64,000 nucleotides of DNA from Candidatus Saccharimonadales bacterium (GTDB lineage: Bacteria; Patescibacteriota; Saccharimonadia; Saccharimonadales; OMJO01). Below, in pieces: positions 29,957 through 53,845 of the stretch; the first letter of the stretch is position 1, and every line of letters starts with the position of its first letter. Under the pieces are notes generated by a model. The model saw only the letters and a program-made list of their open reading frames with translations, was not told the DNA's origin and made no database searches. Location of the stretch: positions 4,032 through 68,031 of the forward strand of contig JBBQSV010000001.1 in the NCBI GenBank assembly GCA_038213615.1, in the 5' to 3' direction. Made by a program: the position numbers and the translations under genes.

Positions 29957-30457
29957 CTACGCCGCTAAACCAAGGTGCCGCTTGATGCGGTCTACAACAT
30001 CGGCAATAACTACCTGTGATTTGACCAAATAATCATCTACACCCAGACTAATTGCCCGCTGTTTGTCGGCTTCTTGGCTTAGTGCCGTCAGCATAACAAC
30101 CTTTAGATTAGTCGTTTCGGGAGTGTTACGCATAATATCTAAAACGTCAAAACCACTAACCTTGGGCATCATAACATCTAGTAAAACTAGGTCTGGTTTG
30201 TACTCTATGGCCGCAGCCAGCGCATCTTCGCCGTTGGGCACACGACGCACATCGAAGCCCTCCGCCTGCATGCGAGTGATGTAAACACTGGCTAGTGCAT
30301 CGTCGTCTTCTACCATCAGGATTTTCTTGGTTGTACCACTGGGTCCAGCGGGTGCCGGAGCTGCAATGGACGAGGCTGACGGTGATGGACTAGCCGGTTG
30401 GCTGGGCGCTACTGGTGGCTGAGTGTTTTGGTCTTCGTTTTTAGTTTGGTCATCCAT
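29957..30457 (-). CDS. single-domain response regulator (canonical receiver) with Pro/Ser/Ala-rich N-terminal tail
   Basis: MVEDDD, LVLLDVMMP (Asp present), VVMLTA and DYLVKS motifs. Confidence 0.85.
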   Translation of the reverse strand: MDDQTKNEDQNTQPPVAPSQPASPSPSASSIAAPAPAGPSGTTKKILMVEDDDALASVYITRMQAEGFDVRRVPNGEDALAAAIEYKPDLVLLDVMMPKVSGFDVLDIMRNTPETTNLKVVMLTALSQEADKQRAISLGVDDYLVKSQVVIADVVDRIKRHLGLAA

Positions 30458-48381: not shown

Positions 48382-49092
48382 ATGAGCCACGAAGTATCAA
48401 TCCATGACGCCCAAACCAGTATTTTGCGAGAGCTACTGTTTCACCCACACGCTGGCTACGCCAAATTGCAAAAGCCCACCGGCCTGGCCAGTGACCACTT
48501 TAACTTTCATATTTCTCGGCTGGTAGAACTGGGCTTGGTAGAAAAAGTATCGCGCGGGCTATACAAGCTAACTCCTCGCGGCAAAGAATACGCTAATCGT
48601 CTAGACACCGATAATAACACCGTAGAACGCCAGCCAAAAGCCGCCGTGATATTGGCCTTGGAGCGCAAAAATGGTAGCAAAAAAGAGTTTTTGTTTCAGG
48701 AACGGCTAAAGAACCCCTACTTTGGTTTTTGGGGTTTGCCTAGTGGCAAAATCCGCTGGGGCGAAACCATCACCGAAACGGCCATGCGCGAATCTTTAGA
48801 AGAAACTGGCCTAACAGCTGACTGGCGAGTAGCTGGCGTTTATCACGAACAATTTTTGCAAGAAGAGTCCCAGGAAATGCTCGAAGACAAAATATTTTTT
48901 GTGGTTCATGGCACTAACCCACGAGGTGATACGTTGGAGCGTTTTGAAGGCGGAGCTAATAAATGGATGACGTTTACCCAGGCCGACAAAAAAGACAAAA
49001 AGTTCGACAGCTTCAAGATGGAAATCGATATTTTAAATGCCAAAGACTGGTTAATCGAACGACGCACCACTTACAGCAAAGACGTGTTTTAG
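48382..49092 (+). CDS. winged-HTH + NUDIX hydrolase fusion
   Basis: N-terminal wHTH ([23 protein letters not shown]) and a Nudix box [23 protein letters not shown]. Confidence 0.8.
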
Positions 49093-49904
49093 GGTTTTTT
49101 CTTTTTGGACTTAGATTTTACATGCGCCAGTGTTAGTTCGGTGCGTTGGCGGGCATACAGGCAGTAGTCACACTCCCCACCCATGGCAGCAGTACCCACA
49201 GCTGGCATGTCGCCCTCCAAGCAGTCTTTCATCTTTTGAATGGTCGGCTCTACCCAACTATCATTGCCGGTGTACGGGATAACTATGGTAGTAAACTCTA
49301 CTTTGTTATAAAACCCATCTAGATCGGTGCGACCGTTGGCGTACACAAAGTAACCGGTGTCGTTAACTTTGAATCCGTTTTGTCGTAGCAGCCACTGATA
49401 GACTTCCATTTGGCGCTTGTAGCTAATCTGCCAATCGGCATCTAGAGTAATCTCTTTGTTCTTAGATGTAGCTTTGTAGTCCACCACAATTAGCTCGCCG
49501 TCGTCATTTATCCAAACATCATCCACCGCGCCAAAGATGTGCAGATTTGTTGGTTGATGCAACGCGGTTACACCGGTGAAGTTGTGTCGCCACTTGTCTA
49601 GGTCTTTGTGGGCAAACGGGATGGCCTTGATCTGATTGTCGGTCATCATTGGGTGCGGCTGGGCTTTTTGGCGGTAGTCATCAAACTCTTTTTTGAACAG
49701 TTCGTCTATAGCTTTGTTGATCTGAAACGGTGGCCCACTGGGTCGTTTGATCTTTAGCCGGGCATCTAACCAAAAACAACGCGGACACTGCATAAACAGC
49801 TCTATTTTGGATCGTGACAGCTTGAATAAATCAGCCTGCCCTGGCTGATATGGTTTGTTGCGCTCTGCCCAGTAATTTCCTGCCATAGAGGTATATTGTA
49901 ACAA
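49089..49904 (-). CDS. PD-(D/E)XK nuclease, Cas4/RecB-like with Cys cluster
   Basis: CPRC near the N-terminus, GAVDDV...VVDYKAT (D..DxK), QMEVYQWLL (QxxxY) and a C-terminal C...CDYC. Confidence 0.75.
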
Positions 49905-49939: not shown

Positions 49940-50710
49940 TTATTTGGCCAGGCCGATGATCAGCACAGCAGCTAGAGCTACACGGCTAACTAGATTTACA
50001 AAAACGTGATTTCGCTCAACGAATAGGTAATCCTTGAAGGCTTTTTTGCCAGCTAAATTCATTTTGTAGTTCAAAGCGATAGCCACAACTGATAGCAGCA
50101 GGATTGCGAATGAAGCGTAAACGTACCAACTGGCCCGAATCATGCCATAAACCATGGTGCCCACACCACTGTTGGCTAGCCAAAACAGCGGCATCACCAA
50201 ACAAACAGCCGCCAAAATGTAGAACAACCAAGCTGACTTTTTAGTTACTACGGTCTGCTTTTCGGTAATCCACATTAGAATAAAGCCAATTGCTGTTAGC
50301 GTACCGGTCATCTTTAGCGCAGTTAAGTCGTGCCAACCATAAAGCATGCCAACTAAGGTGTAGATAGCCGTTCCAACAACGGCCATGTCGATCCAGCGCC
50401 ACAGGTTTACTTTGCCCTTTAGAACTTTTTGATAACTTTTTTGCCATTTGGTGGCGTTTAGTAGCGGTACAACGGCTGCCAGAACAAAGGTAACAACCAC
50501 AAACCACTTGATACTCAGGTCCATAACTAATTTGCTAGCTGGAACAATTTGCTGTTTGGCCAAGCTGTCTTGAGTTAGGTGGGCCAAGGTGATAGGAAAA
50601 GTCTGGTGACCCATAAAAACTCCGGCCAAAATTGCCGCTACCAAAAACAATACCCCGCTCGCCAAGTTTAGGCGCTGCAATTGCAGCTTGTAATCCACTT
50701 TCTTACTCAT
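49940..50710 (-). CDS. heliorhodopsin-like 7TM protein lacking the Schiff-base lysine (Arg instead)
   Basis: NLWRWIDMA, ILMWITEK and ERNHVFVNLVSRVALAA align from memory with the HeR motifs NIFRWVEYS, ILFGWLQEK and ERAYIVLSLVAKSALAW. ATG 50710 is preferred because a -10 box lies 7 nt upstream; ORF-track GTG is at 50716. Confidence 0.6.
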   Translation of the reverse strand: MSKKVDYKLQLQRLNLASGVLFLVAAILAGVFMGHQTFPITLAHLTQDSLAKQQIVPASKLVMDLSIKWFVVVTFVLAAVVPLLNATKWQKSYQKVLKGKVNLWRWIDMAVVGTAIYTLVGMLYGWHDLTALKMTGTLTAIGFILMWITEKQTVVTKKSAWLFYILAAVCLVMPLFWLANSGVGTMVYGMIRASWYVYASFAILLLSVVAIALNYKMNLAGKKAFKDYLFVERNHVFVNLVSRVALAAVLIIGLAK

Positions 50711-50717
50711 TGACACA

Positions 50718-50745
50718 ATAATAACACAATACTATCGACTGGCAA
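50718..50745 (-). promoter_or_regulatory. candidate promoter TTGCCA-16-TATTAT (leaderless)
   Basis: The -10 box ends 7 nt before ATG 50710. Confidence 0.45.
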
Positions 50746-50749
50746 CTAA

Positions 50750-51793
50750 TTAGCCAACCTCACCTATGAATGACTTAACTAAGGCCTTGTTGACGTCTTT
50801 TGGTTTAGTGATGCCCTGACCCATTAGCCACATCAACTTAACTTCGGCCGTTACATCAGTCATAATGCTGGCTTGGCCAGCTCCAGCTTCCAGAGCGGCT
50901 CGGCCAGTCTCGTAAATCTCGGGGACCGTTTTACCACCGATAAATTTAGTAGCAATCACGGCCGGCTTGCCTAGTTTAACTGTCTCTTCAATCACTGGTA
51001 GCAACGAATATTTACCCTCTGATGGTACATTACCGGCACCTAGTGACTTCAAGATCAACGCACTGCACTCATCGGAACGCACGATCGATAACAAAAGTTC
51101 CGGGTTTAAACCTGGTCTAACATTTATACTAACAATCCCGTTTGCAAAGTTAAGCTTTGGATTTAATCTAGATGGAGATAATTTAACGTTCTTCTTTTTA
51201 AGGGCCAAAGGGCTAAATGTAATATCGGTAGCCGAAATGTCCGCTAAGTGGGGAAAAGCCGGTGAGTCAAATGCATTAAACTTGGCCTCGCTAATCTTTA
51301 TAGTGCGGTTAGCTCGCAAGACTACAGCCGAAAATACAATCATTACCTCGGCAACCTTGCAATCAATGGCCTCCGTCAAAGTCCTAACCGATCGCTCTAG
51401 GTTTACTCTGGCATCATTACCCGGGTCTACCATTGGTAACTGCGAGCCCGTAAAGACGATGGGTTTTCCTAAAGAATCACCAAAAGCCATAGAAACGGCC
51501 GTTGCAGTGTAAGCCATAGTGTCAGTACCGTGAGTTACTAAGATACCATCATAACTAGAATAAAGTTCAGCGATTTTACGGATCAACAGCTGCCAGTTTT
51601 CGGGCGTCAAATTAGTACTATCTTTATTTAGCAAATCAACCACAGTCAGATCAATACCCATCTTCTGTAAACCTGGAACGTGTTCTAGTAGCTCTTCGGC
51701 TGATGTAGCTGGTGCTAGGGCGCCCTTGTCATTCGGCACCATAGCAATAGTGCCACCGAAACCGATTAGGACTATGCGTTTGTTGTTTGCCAT
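50750..51793 (-). CDS. ansA: type I L-asparaginase family protein
   Basis: GFGGTIAM and HGTDTMAYTA catalytic Thr motifs. Confidence 0.85.
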   Translation of the reverse strand: MANNKRIVLIGFGGTIAMVPNDKGALAPATSAEELLEHVPGLQKMGIDLTVVDLLNKDSTNLTPENWQLLIRKIAELYSSYDGILVTHGTDTMAYTATAVSMAFGDSLGKPIVFTGSQLPMVDPGNDARVNLERSVRTLTEAIDCKVAEVMIVFSAVVLRANRTIKISEAKFNAFDSPAFPHLADISATDITFSPLALKKKNVKLSPSRLNPKLNFANGIVSINVRPGLNPELLLSIVRSDECSALILKSLGAGNVPSEGKYSLLPVIEETVKLGKPAVIATKFIGGKTVPEIYETGRAALEAGAGQASIMTDVTAEVKLMWLMGQGITKPKDVNKALVKSFIGEVG

Positions 51794-51827: not shown

Positions 51828-52316
51828 CTAGCCTAGCGGTTGATAAGGTACGTGGCACATGCCACGACCAGTACGCTGGGCATATTTTTGGTGATAGTCT
51901 TCCGCTTCGTAAAATTCACTGGCCTTGGTGATTTCTGTAACAATTGGTTGTTCAAAGTCTTTTTGGCTAGACTGTTTTACTTGCTCTGCAATAACTTTTT
52001 GTTCGTCATCAAAATAATAAATGGCCGAACGGTATTGATCCCCAACATCTGGGCCCTGCCCATTTAACTGCGTGGGATCATGCATTCTAAAAAATTGCAT
52101 CAGAATGGTTTTGTAGTCCGTCCGTTTGGGGTCAAACTCTATTAGTACTGCCTCGGCATGGCCAGTATCTTTATAACAAACGTCCTCGTAACTCGGGCCG
52201 GTGGTGTGACCTCCTGTGTAACCTACTGTCGTCTTCATCACGCCTGGTACTTCGTCAAAGTAAAACTGAACTCCCCAAAAACACCCTGCCCCCAATAACG
52301 CTTTTTGATCAGCCAT
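51828..52316 (-). CDS. msrA: peptide methionine (S)-S-oxide reductase
   Basis: GAGCFWGVQ active-site motif. Confidence 0.93.
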   Translation of the reverse strand: MADQKALLGAGCFWGVQFYFDEVPGVMKTTVGYTGGHTTGPSYEDVCYKDTGHAEAVLIEFDPKRTDYKTILMQFFRMHDPTQLNGQGPDVGDQYRSAIYYFDDEQKVIAEQVKQSSQKDFEQPIVTEITKASEFYEAEDYHQKYAQRTGRGMCHVPYQPLG

Positions 52317-53845
52317 TACTTTTTAGGCTTCGATTGTTTTTTGAACACTTCTGGGTAGATGGATTTGGTGACTTCATCAACTTCGGAACGAAGTTGTGGA
52401 AATGGCACACCTTCGCGTGCAGTTACGCCCTCGAACATCCAAAATACACGTTCTGAATAACCAAGCCCACAAGTTGGCGGCATGCCGTATTCCAGCATTT
52501 CTACATAATCGACATCTAACATTTGAGCTTCACTATCACCTGCCTGCCGCATTGCTTCTTGTTCCAAGAATCTCGCTAGCTGATCTTGGGGGTCATTTAA
52601 CTCTGAATAGCCATTACACATCTCACTACCGGCAATGACGGCCTGGAAGCGCTGAGCACTGTCAGGGTCCTCGTCACTAACCTTGCTAAGCGGAGAAATA
52701 AACGCCGGTGTGTTGATTAGCCAAACAGGTCCAGCCACATCTTTGCGAATATTTTTCCAAAGCTTATCGATCCCACGAACTTTGTTGTCTGTTTGTTCGA
52801 CTTCTAGGTTATTCTTGGTCAACAGCTCCTTAACCTCAGCCAGACTACACTCGTGAATATCCAGATCGTAATGTTTCTTTAGCGTGTCGGCGTAATCCCA
52901 CTTTTCCCAAGACTTTTCCATATCAACTTCGTGACCATGCACTTTGAATTTCAGTGTGCCAAAGGTTTGCTTTAGCACATCCGTAAACATTCGCTCCATC
53001 ATAGCCATGCCGTCCTGCCAGTTAGCGTAAGCCCAGTACCACTCCATAGCCACGTGTTCTGGTAAATGCTCGTCGCTATAATTTTCATTACGAAAGCGTG
53101 GACCAATATCAAATACTTTTTCATAGCCACCACCAATAAGTCGCTTCAACGGCAACTCGTGGCTGATACGCAGATAAAAATCTTGATTCAGTGCATCCAT
53201 GTGAGTTACAAACGGAGTGGCATCTGCCCCGCCAGTGGTGTGTTCCAGCACTGGGATATTAATTTCTACAAAATCCTCTTTTTCTAGGAACTGCCGGGTA
53301 GCCTGCCAGAACTTACTGCGGCGCAAAAACCGCTCGTAAACATCACAGTTCACGTTAGTGTCTATGTAGCGGCGGCGCAGGCGCTCTTCTTTATTAGTAA
53401 AGCCGTCTTGGGCGCTGGGCATCGGCCGCAATGCTTTGGTTAGAATCCGCAATTTGCGCACGTTCACAGACACTTCACCAGTTTGGGTCTTTATGACCTC
53501 GCCGTCAGCCTGCACAAAGTCACCACTATCTAGAAAGTTCAATTCGTCTAGGCCTAGTTGACTATTTTTGGGGTCCAGTTTGGCAATCTCGCCGTCACGT
53601 ATAAATAACTGCAGACTGCCGCTAGCATCGCGGATCACCACAAAGGCAATTTTGCCAATTTTGCGGATGTTCACAATCCGACCCACAACAGATACAGATT
53701 TGCCCTCTAGCTTGGCAAAATCGTCAATAATTTGCCGATTGTGATGGGTGCGTACTGAGTCACTAGGGTACGGATTGACCCCCAATTTGCGTAGCTCATC
53801 TAGCTTGCGCAGGCGCTCGTTGCGGTAATCTTTTAGTGTAGACAT
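52316..53845 (-). CDS. lysS: lysine--tRNA ligase (class II)
   Basis: OB-fold N-domain and class II motifs (FRNE, ELNDP); about 500 aa. Confidence 0.96.
   Translation of the reverse strand: MSTLKDYRNERLRKLDELRKLGVNPYPSDSVRTHHNRQIIDDFAKLEGKSVSVVGRIVNIRKIGKIAFVVIRDASGSLQLFIRDGEIAKLDPKNSQLGLDELNFLDSGDFVQADGEVIKTQTGEVSVNVRKLRILTKALRPMPSAQDGFTNKEERLRRRYIDTNVNCDVYERFLRRSKFWQATRQFLEKEDFVEINIPVLEHTTGGADATPFVTHMDALNQDFYLRISHELPLKRLIGGGYEKVFDIGPRFRNENYSDEHLPEHVAMEWYWAYANWQDGMAMMERMFTDVLKQTFGTLKFKVHGHEVDMEKSWEKWDYADTLKKHYDLDIHECSLAEVKELLTKNNLEVEQTDNKVRGIDKLWKNIRKDVAGPVWLINTPAFISPLSKVSDEDPDSAQRFQAVIAGSEMCNGYSELNDPQDQLARFLEQEAMRQAGDSEAQMLDVDYVEMLEYGMPPTCGLGYSERVFWMFEGVTAREGVPFPQLRSEVDEVTKSIYPEVFKKQSKPKK

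Follow-up and report, generated by a model that had tools for sequence, protein, structure and literature searches.

Examination of a 64,000-nucleotide stretch of contig JBBQSV010000001.1 from a Candidatus Saccharimonadales bacterium (the window) revealed a single open reading frame (ORF) predicted to encode a protein of the heliorhodopsin (HeR) family, in which the Lys that binds retinal as a Schiff base is replaced by Arg; no second rhodopsin was found in the 64 kb. The HeR gene lies between a gene encoding a PD-(D/E)XK nuclease-family protein and genes encoding an L-asparaginase and the peptide methionine sulfoxide reductase MsrA (Table 1). The rest of the window comprises ordinary housekeeping genes, including the dcw cluster, aminoacyl-tRNA synthetase (aaRS) genes and those for RecO and CTP synthase. 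Comparison with related Saccharibacterial proteins indicates that the same Lys has been lost repeatedly and that Arg-bearing relatives are under purifying selection, two points that go beyond an initial annotation of this sequence.

A heliorhodopsin-family protein with Arg at the Schiff-base position

When the predicted product was compared with Pfam, the sole family returned was Heliorhodopsin (PF18761; 83.2 bits, E 2.4e-23; gathering cut-off 26.7), with residues 13-253 aligned to profile positions 1-238 of 242. A phmmer search of PDB sequences likewise gave significant matches to heliorhodopsins only, including TaHeR (6is6, E 2e-10) and 48C12 (6su3, E 1e-6). These alignments contain the four pairs of motifs by which the protein had initially been recognized as HeR-like, namely, LQRLN/LQNFN, NLWRWIDMA/NIFRWVEYS, ILMWITEK/ILFGWLQEK and ERNHVFVNLVSRVALAA/ERAYIVLSLVAKSALAW (window protein/solved HeRs), although the alignment is not gap-free, as had been stated, but includes a few loop gaps of 1-3 residues relative to the solved HeRs.

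The structure predicted by AlphaFold2 from a 92-sequence alignment (mean predicted local distance difference test score, pLDDT, 94.8; predicted template modelling score, pTM, 0.90) has seven membrane helices, with an additional short one in the BC loop, and an AB beta-hairpin of two strands (39-49 and 57-68). In a Foldseek search with this model, the ten best matches were all HeR chains (template modelling (TM) scores of 0.82-0.89, root-mean-square deviations of 2.1-3.2 Å), TaHeR 6is6 scoring 0.87/0.89, as compared with 0.5-0.6 for type-1 rhodopsins. Type-1 structures are thus distant, which upholds the HeR fold first proposed. With PF18761 as the sole Pfam match, and none to Bac_rhodopsin (PF01036), descent from type-1 rhodopsins is not supported. 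Because 15 Lys and Arg residues fall on the side of the N-terminus and the BC, DE and FG loops and 5 on the side of the AB, CD and EF loops and the C-terminus, the positive-inside rule predicts an N-in (inverted) topology.

Column assignments were taken from a 176-sequence alignment, and the 48C12 numbering used was compared at 35 residue numbers with the residue names given by Kovalev et al. (2020; PMC7049168), all of which matched. The initial assignment of Arg245 to the position of the retinal-binding Lys was borne out, with the helix-G motif reading NxxxR, as opposed to the SxxxK of HeRs. The only Lys across residues 230-258 is K258 at the C-terminus, leaving the core of helix G without an alternative. 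One other candidate for a retinal site, K135 at the start of helix D, was rejected as a replacement since it is found clade-wide, Lys-type members included. With neither the Schiff-base Lys nor another Lys in helix G, the protein would not be expected to bind retinal covalently.

The Schiff base of 48C12 makes direct bonds with E107 and S237 (PMC7049168). The window protein retains a carboxylate at the former position as Asp110, and Asp is the majority residue at that column in the Saccharibacterial clade; a TaHeR E108D mutant has, moreover, been crystallised (PDB entry 7clj). The columns of His23 and His80 (48C12 numbering) hold Phe24 and Pro84. The Asp and the lack of His at the other two positions had thus been correctly noted. 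Since the counterion Asp and the non-His residues occur clade-wide, also in Lys-bearing members, they are not signs of degeneration. The pocket wall is retained at W108 (W105 of 48C12), P176 and other columns, while F145, L177, V210 and Y217 depart from the clade majority. Two of these, F145 and Y217, correspond to I142 and Q213 of 48C12, which face the beta-ionone ring (PMC7049168), and their bulk might fill the retinal site.

The ORF was described as encoding 258 residues, and it does so when read from its GTG codon. The true start is, however, probably the ATG at 50710 (MSKKVDYK...), giving a 256-aa protein, since two relatives, L001 and P0002, open with MSKK(P/V)D(F/Y)K. The gene was also said to have its own, apparently leaderless promoter. 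In support of this, a promoter-like site stops at 50718, 7 nt before this ATG, and is the best found in the promoter scan, agreeing with the consensus at 10 of 12 positions; it is, at the same time, a consensus match only, from a scan that found 4 sites when 5.0 were expected from shuffled sequences. A leaderless HeR transcript is, as judged from this spacing, plausible.

Sequencing error at the Arg codon was considered and ruled out. Lys-bearing relatives use AAA, from which CGT differs by three substitutions, or AAG, from which it differs by at least two, so that a single-base error does not account for it. Moreover, Arg is encoded by CGT, CGC, CGA and CGA at four independent loci, as against AAA or AAG at Lys-type loci. 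As the change from a Lys to an Arg codon requires several steps, it is also old.

Table 1. Positions of the HeR-family ORF, its key codons and other features in the window.
Feature	Coordinates	Strand	Description
HeR-family ORF	49940..50716	minus	258 aa from GTG 50716; full-length PF18761 match
Arg245, codon CGT	49982..49984	minus	Schiff-base Lys column; K241 of 48C12, K238 of TaHeR
Asp110, codon GAC	50387..50389	minus	Counterion column; E107 of 48C12; proposed ion-pair partner of Arg245
Sigma-70-like promoter match	50718..50745	minus	TTGCCA, 16-nt spacer, TATTAT, upstream TG; consensus match only
PD-(D/E)XK nuclease-family gene	49089..49904	minus	PF12705; downstream of HeR gene
L-asparaginase gene	50750..51793	minus	PF00710 and PF17763; between msrA and HeR gene
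MsrA gene	51828..52316	minus	PF01625, 208 bits; conserved upstream neighbour
Lysyl-tRNA synthetase (LysRS) gene	52316..53845	minus	Class II, PF00152
Winged helix-turn-helix (wHTH)-Nudix gene	48382..49092	plus	4-nt 3' overlap with PD-(D/E)XK gene
Response-regulator receiver protein gene	29957..30457	minus	PF00072; stand-alone

Recurrent lysine loss, selection and covariation with the counterion column

The comparison of homologs for Lys versus Arg proposed in the initial annotation was carried out on a non-redundant set of 250 relatives, assembled from a profile search, genome loci and the 150 matches listed of 462 obtained in a HMMER scan of 1.84 billion representatives. Among these 250 relatives, the Lys column holds Lys in 199 sequences, Arg in 26, another residue (Q, V, T, L, A, S, Y, I, H, E or N) in 23 and a gap in 2. 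The window protein lacks a close relative: the best match among 5.8 billion clustered proteins shares 43-44% identity with it. At 90% identity the window protein forms a cluster by itself, and its seven nearest relatives all carry Lys.

A neighbour-joining tree was computed without the Lys and counterion columns. Parsimony on this tree gives approximately 31 changes from an ancestral Lys and 32 maximal Lys-less clades, both being rough counts, given a distance-based tree of sequences with low identity. Two five-member clades are all-Arg, with within-clade identities of 79-87% and 34-49%, respectively. As such, Lys loss is, in the sequences compared, recurrent in the Saccharibacterial HeR clade, affecting about a fifth of the relatives. 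In the 48C12 subfamily, the Lys is kept in all 118 complete 90%-identity clusters retrieved, a comparison that is indicative only because that sample, at least 66% identical to 48C12, is far shallower than the Saccharibacterial set.

Lys is also replaced in some HeRs of a more classical type that keep the helix-G motif ALAW. Towards the end of the search results, 7 of 16 such sequences (P0123, P0124, P0130, P0140, P0148, P0156 and P0240) have T, Q, S, E, V, N and S at the Lys column. Judging from these sequences, Lys loss may extend beyond Saccharibacteria. It was also observed that most Saccharibacterial HeRs carry a Lys/Thr/Ala-rich N-terminal tail of 30-80 residues, predicted to be cytoplasmic (e.g., L003 5881-6000 and L017 8001-8230), with a conserved opening (MAKxTxTTKAKTKTTKK...) and 28% Lys plus Arg. 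This tail measures at least 30 residues in 192 of 246 sequences and is absent from the window protein, L001 and P0002.

Selection on Arg-bearing proteins was considered in an all-Arg clade (L017 and L021-L024). Ratios of nonsynonymous to synonymous substitution (dN/dS) are 0.07-0.14 over its ten pairs, at synonymous divergences (dS) of 0.75-1.4, and 0.092 in a Lys-type pair of like divergence (L025/L026). Arg-type relatives are thus, by this sequence measure, under the same purifying selection as Lys-type proteins. Of 34 columns conserved to 80% or more among Lys-type members, the window protein itself retains 29 (85%), placing it at the 34th percentile of that group, a level typical of those members.

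Covariation of the two columns points in the same direction. The counterion column holds Asp or Glu in 24 of the 26 sequences with Arg and in 170 of the 199 with Lys; when a neutral or other residue replaces the Lys, the acidic residue is kept in 5 and lost in 18 of 23 sequences. The difference between Arg and neutral forms is significant whether counted by sequence (Fisher p 4e-7) or by tree lineage (14/15 versus 5/17 kept, p 3e-4). These alignments are most simply read as showing two outcomes for the buried charge pair: retention, as Arg and a carboxylate, or loss of the charge on both sides. Such a pattern is expected only of proteins that must still fold and work, implying continued structural selection. 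A non-acidic residue (Y, G, S and others) is also found at the counterion column in 29 of the 199 Lys-bearing members, which may use another counterion or be intermediates towards Lys loss.

Gene neighbourhood and host group

A pattern scan of one genome per species in GTDB identified 16 loci with relatives; the wider set comprises 27 related loci (L001-L027). Twelve of the 16 species loci are labelled Saccharibacteria, Saccharimonadales or Saccharimonadia, with the other four bearing the label 'Patescibacteria group bacterium' (L007), 'bacterium' (L001 and L009) or a similar designation of a metagenome-assembled genome (MAG). The window and the related loci share the gene order class-II aaRS, GreA, LysRS, MsrA, HeR, PD-(D/E)XK, (Nudix), SerRS, S30AE and SecA. 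By this synteny and by protein identity to Saccharibacteria MAGs, the source of the window is a Saccharibacterium (TM7). The initial expectation of an organism unable to make retinal fits this group, for which an absence of retinal synthesis and a dependence on scavenged external retinal have been reported (PMC9296517), and Pfam scans detected no carotenoid or retinal genes in the 64-kb window.

Across loci, identity to the HeR is 29-39%, as compared with 55-80% for PD-(D/E)XK, GreA, LysRS and MsrA. The HeR gene is therefore vertically inherited but fast-evolving, at a fixed position amid better-conserved neighbours. Although the HeR evolves far faster than its neighbours, close pairs show dN/dS of about 0.09. 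The PD-(D/E)XK gene, 67-80% identical in 14 of the 16 species loci, is invariably downstream of the HeR gene.

MsrA is encoded directly upstream of the HeR gene in 14 of the 16 species loci. In seven of these, the gene is co-directional and its product 61-71% identical to the window MsrA; in the other seven, it is divergent and the product, although confirmed as PF01625, is 36-44% identical and apparently a second MsrA type. In the remaining two species loci, the gene divergent from the HeR gene encodes not MsrA but HSP20 (L006 5150-5647, minus strand) or an SPFH/Band-7 protein (L009 4932-5678, minus strand), the latter being flotillin/stomatin-like and recalling flotillin-associated rhodopsins. 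The adjacency of MsrA may point to a functional connection with the repair of oxidative damage, which would agree with the idea of a role for HeRs in photo-oxidative stress (Bulzu et al.; PMC8612252). A search of openly accessible literature found no paper treating heliorhodopsin and methionine sulfoxide reductase together.

In the compact arrangement (e.g., L026), LysRS, MsrA, HeR and PD-(D/E)XK genes follow one another without intervening genes. In the window, the L-asparaginase gene, on the same strand as the HeR gene and 33 nt from it, separates the latter from msrA. Since tblastn found no asparaginase near the HeR gene in the 27 related loci, the L-asparaginase gene is best described, on this comparison of loci, as a lineage-specific insertion seen in the window genome only and splitting the MsrA-HeR pair. 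The connection drawn earlier between the HeR and its asparaginase neighbour is thus not supported.

Pfam scans of the window detected no Bac_rhodopsin, HAMP or MCP domains, and the surroundings of the HeR gene include neither a transducer gene nor a kinase gene. An Rfam scan of all 64 kb gave no match that reached a gathering score, with no tRNA, rRNA or riboswitch being found. Nearly all window genes are on the minus strand. The wHTH-Nudix gene, which converges with the PD-(D/E)XK gene, also adjoins the nuclease gene in L017 and L018. The slot between GreA and MsrA is occupied by class-II LysRS in the window and several other loci and by class-I LysRS (PF01921) in L022 (292-1821), L024 (483-2012) and L026 (2930-4459), which looks like non-orthologous displacement of LysRS within Saccharibacteria. 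Elsewhere in the window, no kinase gene accompanies the response-regulator receiver protein gene among the ORFs scanned.

A proposed light-independent function and comparison with known systems

The explanation that we favour, and which we consider on balance probable, is that the window encodes a vertically inherited Saccharibacterial HeR in which the retinal Lys has been replaced by Arg, rendering the protein light-blind but still selected, with an Arg-Asp pair standing in for the Schiff base-counterion pair. No retinylidene pigment would be formed. Instead, the Arg245 guanidinium would occupy the usual site of the protonated Schiff base, in putative contact with the Asp110 carboxylate, such that a buried charge pair joining helices C and G would be preserved without a chromophore. 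The conformation of the protein would be fixed, and probably dark-like. Its retention would mean that the role selected in this clade does not need retinal; as the most likely candidate, the HeR would act from the membrane as a partner or regulator of some soluble protein of the conserved stress locus linked to msrA. Among candidate roles, lipid or membrane organisation would rank after partnership in the MsrA locus, and regulation of the asparaginase last.

Several points weigh against this explanation. The window protein is without a close relative, so that selection on its lineage is inferred from other Arg lineages, in which dS lies near 1 in the all-Arg clade tested, close to saturation. 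The tree is a neighbour-joining tree only. The adjacency of MsrA is missing in L006, L009 and L024 and could be plain gene-order conservation of Saccharibacteria. Finally, Lys-less HeRs could possibly bind a ligand non-covalently, and conservation of the retinal pocket is weakly lower in Lys-less (ratio 0.89) than in Lys-bearing members (0.98; p ~0.04), a result not relied on as the consensus used is biased towards the Lys group.

The gene could, alternatively, be a decaying relic without function, drifting to loss because retinal is unavailable or light irrelevant, with Arg being the first disabling change. The divergence of the HeR relative to its neighbours in the same loci, the position of the window protein on an orphan branch and the four pocket columns that depart from the clade majority would agree with decay. 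Yet the ORF is intact and full-length and its predicted fold very confident, conserved columns are kept to the extent typical of Lys-type members, and the Arg codon, two to three substitutions from AAA or AAG, represents an old state in an undecayed ORF. Given, moreover, that other Arg lineages persist through deep divergence at dN/dS of about 0.09 and that covariation of the counterion implies continued structural selection, decay is improbable. Rather unlikely, too, is a photoreceptor or ligand sensor that would hold retinal, or some other small hydrophobic molecule, in its pocket without a covalent bond and signal upon light or ligand. Arg cannot form a Schiff base, its guanidinium would take the site of the Schiff-base nitrogen, F145 and Y217 place bulk at the columns facing the beta-ionone ring, and a nearby transducer or kinase gene is lacking, even if W108, P176 and other positions of the pocket wall are retained and uptake of external retinal by Saccharibacteria has been reported (PMC9296517). 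Lys-lacking bacteriorhodopsin and bovine rhodopsin, in work cited in PMC4915679, do function with aminated retinylidene compounds, if less efficiently.

Two further explanations assign the protein a light-independent role other than that preferred here. By analogy with the interaction between HeR and glutamine synthetase, the protein might be a scaffold or regulator of the adjacent L-asparaginase. Binding of HeRs to glutamine synthetase and photolyase has been reported (papers listed in PMC10308929), and the two genes are close and co-oriented. Still, asparaginase is missing from every one of the 27 related loci, its gene interrupts an otherwise conserved MsrA-HeR pair, and the HeR gene has a promoter-like site of its own, making this the least credible of the possibilities considered. 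Alternatively, the seven-helix scaffold might move or organise lipids, as a scramblase or membrane organiser of use to an episymbiont scavenging host lipids, with retinal being dispensable. Equal selection on Lys and Arg types would be compatible with this, as would a preprint in which opsins from across the domains of life are reported to act as scramblases without need of retinal (10.1101/2025.08.17.670764) and the SPFH/Band-7 gene directly upstream of the HeR gene of Lys-type L009, reminiscent of flotillin-associated rhodopsins. We nonetheless regard such a role as unlikely, since the preprint does not mention heliorhodopsins, the SPFH neighbour is a single case and nothing in the window bears directly on lipids.

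The physiological role of HeRs is debated, with functions as a sensor, an enzyme regulator and a viral proton channel having been proposed. Many Lys-less but selected HeRs, at a fixed chromosomal position and in hosts unable to make retinal, point to a scaffold function without light. One may tentatively go further than the favoured explanation and suppose, although we are doubtful, that the core function of the entire Saccharibacterial HeR clade is independent of retinal and light, with light sensing being an optional layer shed some 30 times. Candidate functions under this broader and less secure supposition would be that of a membrane partner of an MsrA-centred oxidative-damage module or a lipid-handling scaffold, and each loss would possibly either keep the charge pair (Lys to Arg, with Asp or Glu retained) or remove both charges. 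If true, this would offer a testable light-independent HeR activity, together with naturally occurring 'dark' alleles as a means of identifying it. Arg-, neutral- and Lys-type orthologues would, in any case, provide ready-made controls for assays of partner binding, MsrA coupling and lipids.

Comparison with the solved HeRs 48C12 and TaHeR (6su3 and 6is6) reveals the same Pfam family, TM scores of 0.84-0.89, a long AB beta-hairpin and N-in topology, all at only about 20% sequence identity. R104/W105, E149, Y226, E230, D127 and Y92 of 48C12 are matched by R107/W108, E152, Y230, E234, D130 and Y95 of the window protein, respectively, while Lys241, Glu107, His23, His80 and Ser237 are replaced by Arg, Asp, Phe, Pro and Asn, such that no Schiff base is possible. 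Closer still are the HeRs of candidate phyla radiation (CPR) genomes described by Chiriac et al. (2022; PMC9166423), which number 98, with 80 in Saccharimonadia, a class in which HeRs were already known to be common, and which belong to the same organism group and protein clade. In that study, the SxxxK motif was checked and, as far as the available text goes, only the Lys motifs SLVAK, SLIAK and SFVAK are given, with Lys-less members not being described. A search of openly accessible literature found no description of Lys-less heliorhodopsins. Two HeR surveys checked for or required the Lys of the seventh transmembrane helix (PMC9166423, PMC9601134), which would explain why Lys-less HeRs are unreported; use of the Lys as an inclusion criterion would thus have filtered out this class, exposing a blind spot.

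Loss of the Schiff-base Lys has precedents among type-1 proteins. The haloarchaeal opsin-related proteins (ORPs; Becker et al., 2016; PMC4915679) are likewise rhodopsin-fold homologues without this Lys and fall into the same two replacement classes, with K216R in group A and K216L or another hydrophobic residue in group B. They are transcribed and conserved, and account for 48 of the 170 members of their family, as compared with about 20% of the Saccharibacterial HeR relatives being Lys-less. Unlike the type-3 Saccharibacterial HeRs, with their many independent losses, the ORPs form one monophyletic type-1 clade, and group A ORPs adjoin HAMP/MCP transducers, whereas the conserved neighbour of the Saccharibacterial HeR gene is MsrA, with no transducer gene in the window. 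The covariation of Arg with a carboxylate, and of neutral with neutral, offers a clean case of buried-charge compensation and independently repeats the haloarchaeal type-1 pattern. Rh-noK, a xanthorhodopsin-related protein of betaproteobacteria, and the flotillin-associated rhodopsins (FARs) are also retinal-free and kept by selection. These, however, are type-1 proteins found alongside a bona fide pump paralogue, which in the case of Rh-noK is in tandem, while the 64-kb window encodes no second rhodopsin. Marine FARs, moreover, keep the Lys, the pocket being blocked instead (10.1101/2025.04.29.651185).

A further parallel, offered as a mechanistic analogy only, is the K296R form of bovine opsin, an engineered mutant of an animal type-2 protein with no homology to the window protein. 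In work attributed to Cohen, Oprian and Robinson in 1992, this replacement reportedly keeps the salt bridge with the counterion Glu113 and holds the apoprotein inactive, whereas other K296 substitutions were reportedly constitutively active. Given the type-1 precedents, Lys-less HeRs could have been anticipated by analogy; their frequency, the selection acting upon them and the charge-pair pattern offer a useful way into the debated role of HeRs. With its type-3 ancestry, the window protein is not a member of the haloarchaeal ORPs or of Rh-noK. Rather, it is a HeR by descent that is without the defining Schiff-base Lys of its family and that would, by analogy, be functionally akin to the Lys-less type-1 opsin-related proteins.

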